Shown piece by piece: positions 28,932-29,763 of a DNA stretch of 64,000 bases (positions are counted from its first letter, which is position 1; each line of letters begins with the position of its first letter). The notes beneath the pieces were generated by a model. It searched no databases. It was not told where the DNA came from and saw only the letters and a list, made by a program, of their open reading frames with translations. Both the position numbers and the translations under genes were made by a program. The stretch comes from a bacterium (lineage in GTDB: Bacteria; UBA8248). Location: positions 1,504,001 to 1,568,000 of the forward strand of contig CBDBBI010000010.1 of assembly GCA_965202625.1 (NCBI GenBank), given 5' to 3'.

Positions 28932-29763
28932 TTCTGGCTCATCACCCCTCCAGCAGGGTCATAAACCCTGAAATATCGTGCCCATGCCGCTGACGCTGTC
29001 TGGAGTATCACCCCTCCAGCAGGGTCATAAACCGGGGGACTGACCTTAAGCTCCGGAAAGCAGGTCTGGAGTATCACCCCTCCAGCAGGGTCATAAACCG
29101 AGGGGGCGCGGCCCGGTCACATCGTGTGCGTGTCTGGAGTATCACCCCTCCAGCAGGGTCATAAACCACTTTTTCCAATTTATTATTGTGGATGTTGGTC
29201 TGGAGTATCACCCCTCCAGCAGGGTCATAAACCTAGTTTTTCCAATTGATAATAGTTGACGTTGGTCTGGAGTATCACCCCTCCAGCAGGGTCATAAACC
29301 CCTTCTTCAGTACGAGTTACGCTCGAGGCTGTCTGGAGTATCACCCCTCCAGCAGGGTCATAAACCAAAACTAGCCCTTCTCACGCCGGCTGCTCCGTCT
29401 GGAGTATCACCCCTCCAGCAGGGTCATAAACCAAAACTAGCCCTTCTCACGCCGGCTGCTCCGTCTGGAGTATCACCCCTCCAGCAGGGTCATAAACCGC
29501 GCTTCGCCGAGCGCTTCTCTTTCGTCAAGGTCTGGAGTATCACCCCTCCAGCAGGGTCATAAACCAGGTCAACTTCTCTTTCCTGGGCAGCATCTGTCTG
29601 GAGTATCACCCCTCCAGCAGGGTCATAAACCTTTCTATGCTGTGAGCGTCCGCCACTCCAAGTCTGGAGTATCACCCCTCCAGCAGGGTCATAAACCCGG
29701 AGCGGCTTCAAGGGCTGCCGGATCGGGGTCTGGAGTATCACCCCTCCAGCAGGGTCATAAACC
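28932..29763 (-). CRISPR. CRISPR array, 13 repeats of 36 nt (GGTTTATGACCCTGCTGGAGGGGTGATACTCCAGAC on - strand), 12 spacers of 30-32 nt
   Basis: 12 identical repeats starting at 28998, 29064, 29132, 29198, 29265, 29331, 29397, 29463, 29530, 29596, 29662, 29728 plus a degenerate terminal repeat at 28932; AT-rich leader on the effector side. Confidence 0.98.

Follow-up and report, generated by a model that had tools for sequence, protein, structure and literature searches.

Codon-phased variant spacers in a type V-M CRISPR array and their probable origin in two captures of one coding site

What history is recorded when two neighbouring spacers of a CRISPR array are nearly the same, and every base that separates them falls in one codon phase? 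Spacers 4 and 5 of the array described here raise that question. They lie in the window that we analysed, a stretch of 64,000 nucleotides from a bacterium of the GTDB lineage UBA8248. Two captures of a single site, the capture of an escape mutant, the duplication and subsequent drift of one unit, and the bringing together of spacers from different strains are among the histories that we weigh below. The features on which the argument depends are collected in Table 1.

Table 1. Features of the CRISPR locus, with positions counted from the first base of the window
Feature	Position	Strand	Description
CRISPR array	28932..29793	-	13 repeats (36 nt each), 12 spacers (30-32 nt)
Spacer 4	29168..29197	-	older of the pair; 30 nt; GC 0.27; reads TSTIINWKK
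Spacer 5	29234..29264	-	newer of the pair; 31 nt; GC 0.29; reads TSTIINWKN
Spacers 7 and 8	29367-29396, 29433-29462	-	exact 30/30 duplicates around one repeat
Spacer 12	29698..29727	-	newest spacer; 30/30 match in cas12c, C6:3574-3603
Leader	29794..29847	-	between cas12m stop codon and first repeat
cas12m	29848..31767	-	639 aa; type V-M effector by structure-database and family matches

The array, its reading direction and its effector

The array consists of regularly spaced, identical direct repeats (12 exact 36-nt copies and one degenerate copy at 28932-28967, at a spacing of 66-68 nt) that separate spacers of similar length, nine of them 30 nt long, two 31 nt and one 32 nt. Spacers are numbered from the oldest (spacer 1, at 28968) to the newest and leader-proximal (spacer 12, at 29698). 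Four features of the sequence show this order, with transcription from the minus strand: cas12m lies on the same strand just upstream and ends 54 nt before the first repeat; the 54-nt leader between them is AT-rich and contains a promoter-like site; the degenerate repeat stands at the far end of the array; and in a relative of the same class (G046) a similar repeat comes after the end of a cas12m-like gene, again on one strand. The leader site, which is a consensus match only, is sigma-70-like and runs from 29831 to 29804, with GTGACG and TAAAAT separated by 16 nt and a TG before the -10 element. In G046 (C1:2460359-2460401; locus L045, about 1400-1545) the repeat is 87% like the V-M repeat and stands alone, without an array, between the end of the cas12m-like gene and an apparent transposase gene, as read from the translation.

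Type V guides usually carry a hairpin just before the spacer. The repeat as read on the minus strand has two hexamers that are complementary to each other, CUGGAG and CUCCAG, and the second of them stops two bases short of the spacer. The predicted lowest-energy fold of this strand pairs CCCUG with GGGGU further upstream (-13.6 kcal/mol, z -2.2), so that the fold prediction itself gives no spacer-adjacent hairpin, and the 6-bp hexamer hairpin is the predicted fold of the plus strand only (-9.3 kcal/mol, z -1.2).

Two further sigma-70-like sites lie within the array on the minus strand, at 29278-29249 and 29211-29182, where spacers 5 and 4 join the GTGATA of the preceding repeat; both have 9/12 matches at a spacing of 18 and are again consensus matches only. 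Either might serve as a promoter inside the array, driving its older portion. Just past the far end of the array, a tandem duplication of ~314 bp with 94% identity (27595-28208) spans glycine-zipper, or 17-kDa-antigen-like, lipoprotein genes.

The effector aligns with PDB entry 23vu, UnCas12m4a, over residues 39-634 (E 8.8e-126), with further matches to 23vw (Cas12m, E 2.9e-30) and to 8hhl and 8hio (Cas12m2, E ~6e-9, 6.3e-9 for 8hhl) and weaker ones to TnpB and Cas12f. Its family hits, NF040570 (TnpB family, 99.6 bits) and PF07282 (74 bits), both cover the TnpB-like C-terminal part only. In the 23vu alignment the aspartate, glutamate and aspartate at what we take to be the RuvC motif places appear intact. 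Judged by the homology of its effector to characterised Cas12m proteins, the locus is type V-M CRISPR-Cas, and it resembles the type V-M systems of MmCas12m2, GoCas12m and UnCas12m4a in having an effector of ~600-640 aa whose C-terminal RuvC/TNB part is TnpB-like, a 36-nt repeat with complementary hexamers near the spacer on the gene's strand, and neither cas1 nor cas2. The name "Cas12m4" had no occurrence in the literature searched.

A scan of 12 neighbouring ORFs showed no cas gene among them, cas1, cas2 and cas4 included, and a genome-wide search for Cas1 returned only C10:2385099 and C6:5788, neither of which is inside the window. Among the neighbours are a LysR regulator, glutamate synthase (gltB/gltD), glycine-zipper lipoproteins present in duplicate, a type ISP restriction enzyme and a Fic protein. 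Two reports (PMC11013384, PMC10442227) describe adaptation genes as missing from V-U/V-M loci, and published Cas12m proteins as binding DNA without cleaving it, in dependence on a 5′ PAM that is T- or C-rich. As described there, interference comes about through a block to transcription or replication and was seen for targets in ori and KanR, not for the plasmid backbone, and some members process their own pre-crRNA (PMC11013384, PMC10442227).

Spacers 4 and 5 differ in one codon phase

In crRNA orientation, that is on the minus strand, the two spacers read exactly as given in a first-pass annotation of this DNA, and its description of the pair was borne out by the alignment. They share a repeat-adjacent 5′ end and hence a register, match at 24/30 positions and differ at positions 5, 8, 11, 14, 17 and 29, with the 1-nt difference in length falling at the distal end. 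All six mismatches are congruent to 2 modulo 3; for six mismatches among 30 positions, the probability that all share a phase is 3 × C(10,6)/C(30,6) = 0.00106. The similarity itself is likewise beyond what the composition of the array yields: when the letters of the 12 spacers were shuffled, no pair reached 24/30 (0/20,000, with a maximum of 20), and among the 66 pairs of V-M spacers at least 14 anchored matches were found only for 4/5 (24/30) and 7/8 (30/30).

Spacer 4 reads in frame as xCA ACA TCC ACA ATA ATA AAT TGG AAA AAG T, and the same crRNA-sense frame 2 of both spacers gives the annotated peptides of Table 1, which are separated by five synonymous changes and one K/N replacement. The opposite-strand frame (FFQFIIVDV and FFQLIIVDV) also shows a difference of a single residue and was rejected; in spacer 5 a TAG directly precedes it, so that the crRNA-sense frame alone is open through both spacers. 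First and second codon positions are identical throughout (20/20), and six of the nine free third positions differ, by five transversions and one transition. Sharing a register, and with their differences confined to one phase of one open frame, the two spacers have the form of an allelic pair. They are also AT-rich, as had been pointed out: against the GC contents in Table 1, the other ten spacers range from 0.50 to 0.75 and the chromosome stands at 0.585.

We consider it probable, while leaving real room for other histories, that the pair records two captures of one protein-coding site, begun at the same base by a 5′ PAM, from two anciently diverged alleles of a conserved gene on AT-rich foreign DNA; the carriers of the two alleles were most likely a pair of related phages or plasmids. 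That both spacers begin alike at the PAM-proximal 5′ end fits capture measured from a 5′ PAM, as would be expected of a type V array, and a crRNA in the sense of the presumed mRNA would pair with the template strand. Silent divergence is near saturation under strong protein constraint. Because transversions make up five of the six changes and 6/9 free third positions have changed, the sources of spacers 4 and 5 were, on this reading of the sequence, anciently diverged alleles of a conserved motif, and neither a fresh escape mutant nor a drifted duplicate.

The same features bear on the two histories that would require one source only. Exact tandem duplicates are present in the V-M array and in the type II-C array of this genome, which lends some colour to a unit duplicated like spacers 7 and 8 whose copies then drifted, the alternative that the first-pass annotation had set against its own proposal. 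Drift after duplication, however, offers no reason for the codon phase of the differences (P = 0.00106) or for the sparing of first and second positions, the repeats between and around spacers 4 and 5 are all identical, and the spacers differ in length by one base; this origin is close to refuted, and we find it scarcely credible.

Escape followed by re-capture in one lineage, in which an invader mutated under the pressure of spacer 4 and the mutated site was then captured, agrees with the order of the pair, spacer 4 being the older and spacer 5 the newer, and the differences at guide positions 5 and 8 would be enough to abolish binding. A single change in the PAM or seed suffices for escape from CRISPR, however, whereas six silent changes in 30 bases, five transversions against a single transition, are near saturation and unlike the point-mutation escape of a recent mutant. 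We therefore judge this course very unlikely. Escape by recombination with a diverged allele would fit, but it is the explanation by two alleles under another name. The origin put forward at first pass, two separate captures or else an escape variant, consequently survives in its first part, which has the codon phase, the single open frame and the five synonymous changes with one K/N in its favour, and is unlikely in its second.

Target re-use in three arrays and the search for the source

The proposed capture of two alleles by one array may be set beside the other CRISPR loci of the same genome. A type II-C locus encodes Cas9 (705 bits), Cas1 (227 bits) and Cas2 and has 77 spacers of 29-30 nt with 36-nt repeats, and a type V-C locus on the 9.8-kb contig C6 encodes Cas12c (1082 bits) and Cas1 and has 29 spacers, each 18-19 nt long. 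When the 118 spacers of the three arrays (V-M, II-C and V-C) were compared all against all, five groups of identical spacers emerged, a triple among them, along with four variant or overlapping pairs. Besides V-M spacers 7 and 8, the exact duplicates are II-C spacers 58 = 59 = 60, 66 = 67 and 73 = 76 (array at L008), and V-C spacers 16 = 21 (array at L007 6604-7878); the members of 73 = 76 and of 16 = 21 are not adjacent, and such non-adjacent duplicates point to repeated capture of one site and not to slippage. The variant or overlapping pairs are, in addition to V-M 4/5, II-C 33/45 in the same register (27/29), II-C 11/16 on opposite strands (26/27) and II-C 19 with V-C 25 (16/18). Re-use of targets is thus frequent in all three arrays, and V-M 4/5 is its most diverged case. 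Low-GC spacers (<36%) number 4/77 in the II-C array and 4/29 in the V-C array.

The other spacers gave a few glimpses of the elements around this host. In a blastn search of phage records, II-C spacer 18 (L008 12493-12522) hit Methylophilales phage Melnitz in its major capsid gene (31/34, E 0.04), the sole and weak phage match of the II-C array, which had no plasmid match; it is the sole hint at the kind of phage that the host meets. II-C spacer 30 matches at 27/30 a site at 14066-14095 of contig C3, a 22.6-kb contig of the same assembly, and this contig may be a mobile element that was placed in the bin together with the genome. Among the small contigs of the assembly, 5/9 measure 22.5-24 kb.

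The first-pass annotation had proposed looking for the spacers and their peptide in databases, and this search, covering virome and phage, plasmid, genome and metagenome collections, returned no protospacer for spacer 4 or spacer 5. The spacers had no second copy in their own 3.09-Mb assembly and, at up to 3 mismatches, were found in 0/41 family members and 0/50 class and phylum relatives, the latter being all genomes available for the class and phylum. The codon-degenerate patterns ACNTCNACNATHATHAAYTGGAARAA, CNACNTCNACNATNATNAAYTGGAARAA and ACNTCNACNATNATNAAYTGRAARAA had 0 matches each in IMG/VR. Pattern CNACNTCNACNATNATNAAYTGGAARAA gave a single match in each of two collections, 185,579 species genomes and the JGI metagenomes; both lie in the same Parabacteroides TPR gene, which was rejected as out of frame, its free positions being first codon positions; a match at this level is expected by chance for the pattern. 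With blastn the whole V-M array had no match among phage records, and its 14 matches among plasmid records all had E values of 0.2 or worse. The PAM-fixed acquisition hotspot in a conserved gene, as put forward at first pass, is therefore a putative one. Logan contigs from sequencing runs X1-X4, which belong to one study, extend over both the flanks of the array and spacers 6-8, and over the cas12c site discussed below, and none lies over 29052-29271, where spacers 4 and 5 are located.

A shorter pattern for STIINWK[K/N] found four loci in IMG/VR, three of them out of frame or in short ORFs. In-frame STIINWKK occurred only in the fourth (L030), a repeat-rich phage ORF of 1007 aa on a 105-kb contig of 29% GC, which had no HTH family hit and no family assignment. 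This ORF was rejected as the target: it matches spacer 4 at only 22/30, all five PAM-proximal bases are different, and the contig has no other spacer match, the best II-C hit having an E value of 1.6 and the V-M array hitting only the selected site. The occurrence of STIINWKK in this ORF looks like a chance match.

The L030 ORF also bears on a history with a single invader that carried two diverged copies of one gene or domain, both captured in one infection episode. The adjacency of spacers 4 and 5 favours such paralogous sites, and an in-frame STIINWKK in a long ORF of repeated domains indicates that the motif can occur in repeat proteins. Repeats that are saturated at silent sites seldom keep 9/10 residues, however, and the one ORF with the motif matches spacer 4 as poorly as described, on a contig that other II-C or V-M spacers match no better than chance. 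We regard paralogous sites in one invader as unlikely, and continue to prefer two alleles in two related elements.

What kind of protein the site would encode can be approached through the peptide, which the first-pass annotation had likened to an HTH recognition helix. S-T-I-x-N-W-K does resemble "sTIs.wE.G", a stretch characteristic of the XRE/Cro-type HTH family (Pfam HTH_3), over the 9-10 residues that can be compared; unlike in that family, the usually conserved Glu would be Lys in the spacer peptide. No HTH protein with the spacer peptide was found in the collections searched, and the motif would suit a beta-strand equally well, in a repeat domain or an Ig-like one.

The relatives likewise provide the evidence on recombination between arrays, or horizontal import, by which the variants held by two strains would have been placed side by side. 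The V-M locus lacks adaptation genes, and exact duplicates (7 = 8, and those of the other arrays) indicate that repeat-spacer units are rearranged or re-added, both of which speak for such an event. The V-M repeat, however, was found at up to 3 mismatches in 0/41 relatives, and spacers 4 and 5 in none, so that no donor is in view; moreover, two independent captures at the same site would still be required somewhere. Array recombination is in our estimation decidedly unlikely. Among the rival histories, only this one and paralogous sites keep appreciable weight beside two captures from two alleles.

The only protospacer found for the V-M array belongs to spacer 12. It lies in the same assembly (L007), inside the cas12c gene of the type V-C locus (C6:1560-5378), and the crRNA is the antisense sequence. 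On the crRNA-like strand its 5′ flank ends in CCCGGAA (...TTTCCCGGAA); unlike the published T- or C-rich Cas12m PAMs, this single protospacer has GGAA on its 5′ side, and the GGAA flank may be no PAM at all. In runs X1-X3, contigs with the cas12c site have depths of 2-4.4, similar to the 3.3-4.5 of the array flanks. A binding-only effector guided to this site might silence cas12c instead of killing the cell.

A proposed course of events and its bearing on type V-M immunity

The favoured history, two captures from two alleles, can be set out as a sequence of events, each step of which is conjectural. Spacer 4 would have been captured first, from one allele, and spacer 5 next. Cas12 effectors need the PAM-proximal part of the guide for binding, and with mismatches at guide positions 5 and 8 the spacer 4 crRNA would fail to hold the second allele; a further capture, again at that PAM-defined site, would then have been kept for restoring cover. 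Since published Cas12m proteins block transcription or replication without cutting, an invader would offer few protective sites, and the funnelling of both captures to one site could reflect a capture hot spot, a very small target genome, selection for sites where binding protects, or some combination of these. Weighing against this history are the composition of the target, whose ~28% GC would be odd for a host of 58.5% GC, the lack of cas1 and cas2 at the V-M locus, and the adjacency of the pair, which also fits a single infection episode with one element and two paralogous sites. So do the lack of any protospacer for either spacer in the collections searched and the GGAA flank of the spacer 12 site, which departs from the T- or C-rich PAMs of other Cas12m proteins.

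A bolder extension may be considered, in which the Cas12m array, having no adaptation genes of its own, was updated presumably by a co-resident integrase; selection acting on a binding-only effector drove both captures to the same codon-register site; the pair marks a silencing-sensitive point of an AT-rich mobile-element lineage; and spacer 12 represents the same binder used on resident cas12c. The type II-C Cas1-Cas2 works with repeats of 36 nt and spacers of 30 nt, sizes that the V-M array shares. We put this extension forward as a speculation that is rather unlikely to hold as a whole.

Repeated capture and allelic spacers have precedents. Two independently acquired spacers against the same protospacer are described by Rao et al. 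2016 (PMC5071653), and synonymous together with non-synonymous differences between the protospacers of related phages by Hargreaves et al. 2014 (PMC4173771). Unlike in these known cases, the alleles recorded here are near saturation at silent sites and the array lacks its own adaptation genes. The pair is also reminiscent of primed adaptation, known from type I and reported for type II, in which an older spacer that still matches in part leads to the uptake of another one from the same invader. Priming, however, spreads new spacers around the primed site and does not return them to that very site, and it requires Cas3 or Cas9 machinery. The pair is thus a further, well-supported example of a known phenomenon, made distinctive mainly by the depth of its divergence and by its place in an array without adaptation genes.

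As such, spacers 4 and 5 provide a clean natural case, with solid statistics, in which a host armed itself anew at the same site against a diverged allele, a clear but ordinary record of the arms race between host and invader that adds an example and not a principle. Its setting is type V-M, a CRISPR type in which spacer uptake is poorly understood and the effector only binds. If the targets are found, they would give the PAM of this Cas12m branch and the kind of site that is worth blocking, and would constitute a natural test of the effector's tolerance for PAM-proximal mismatches.
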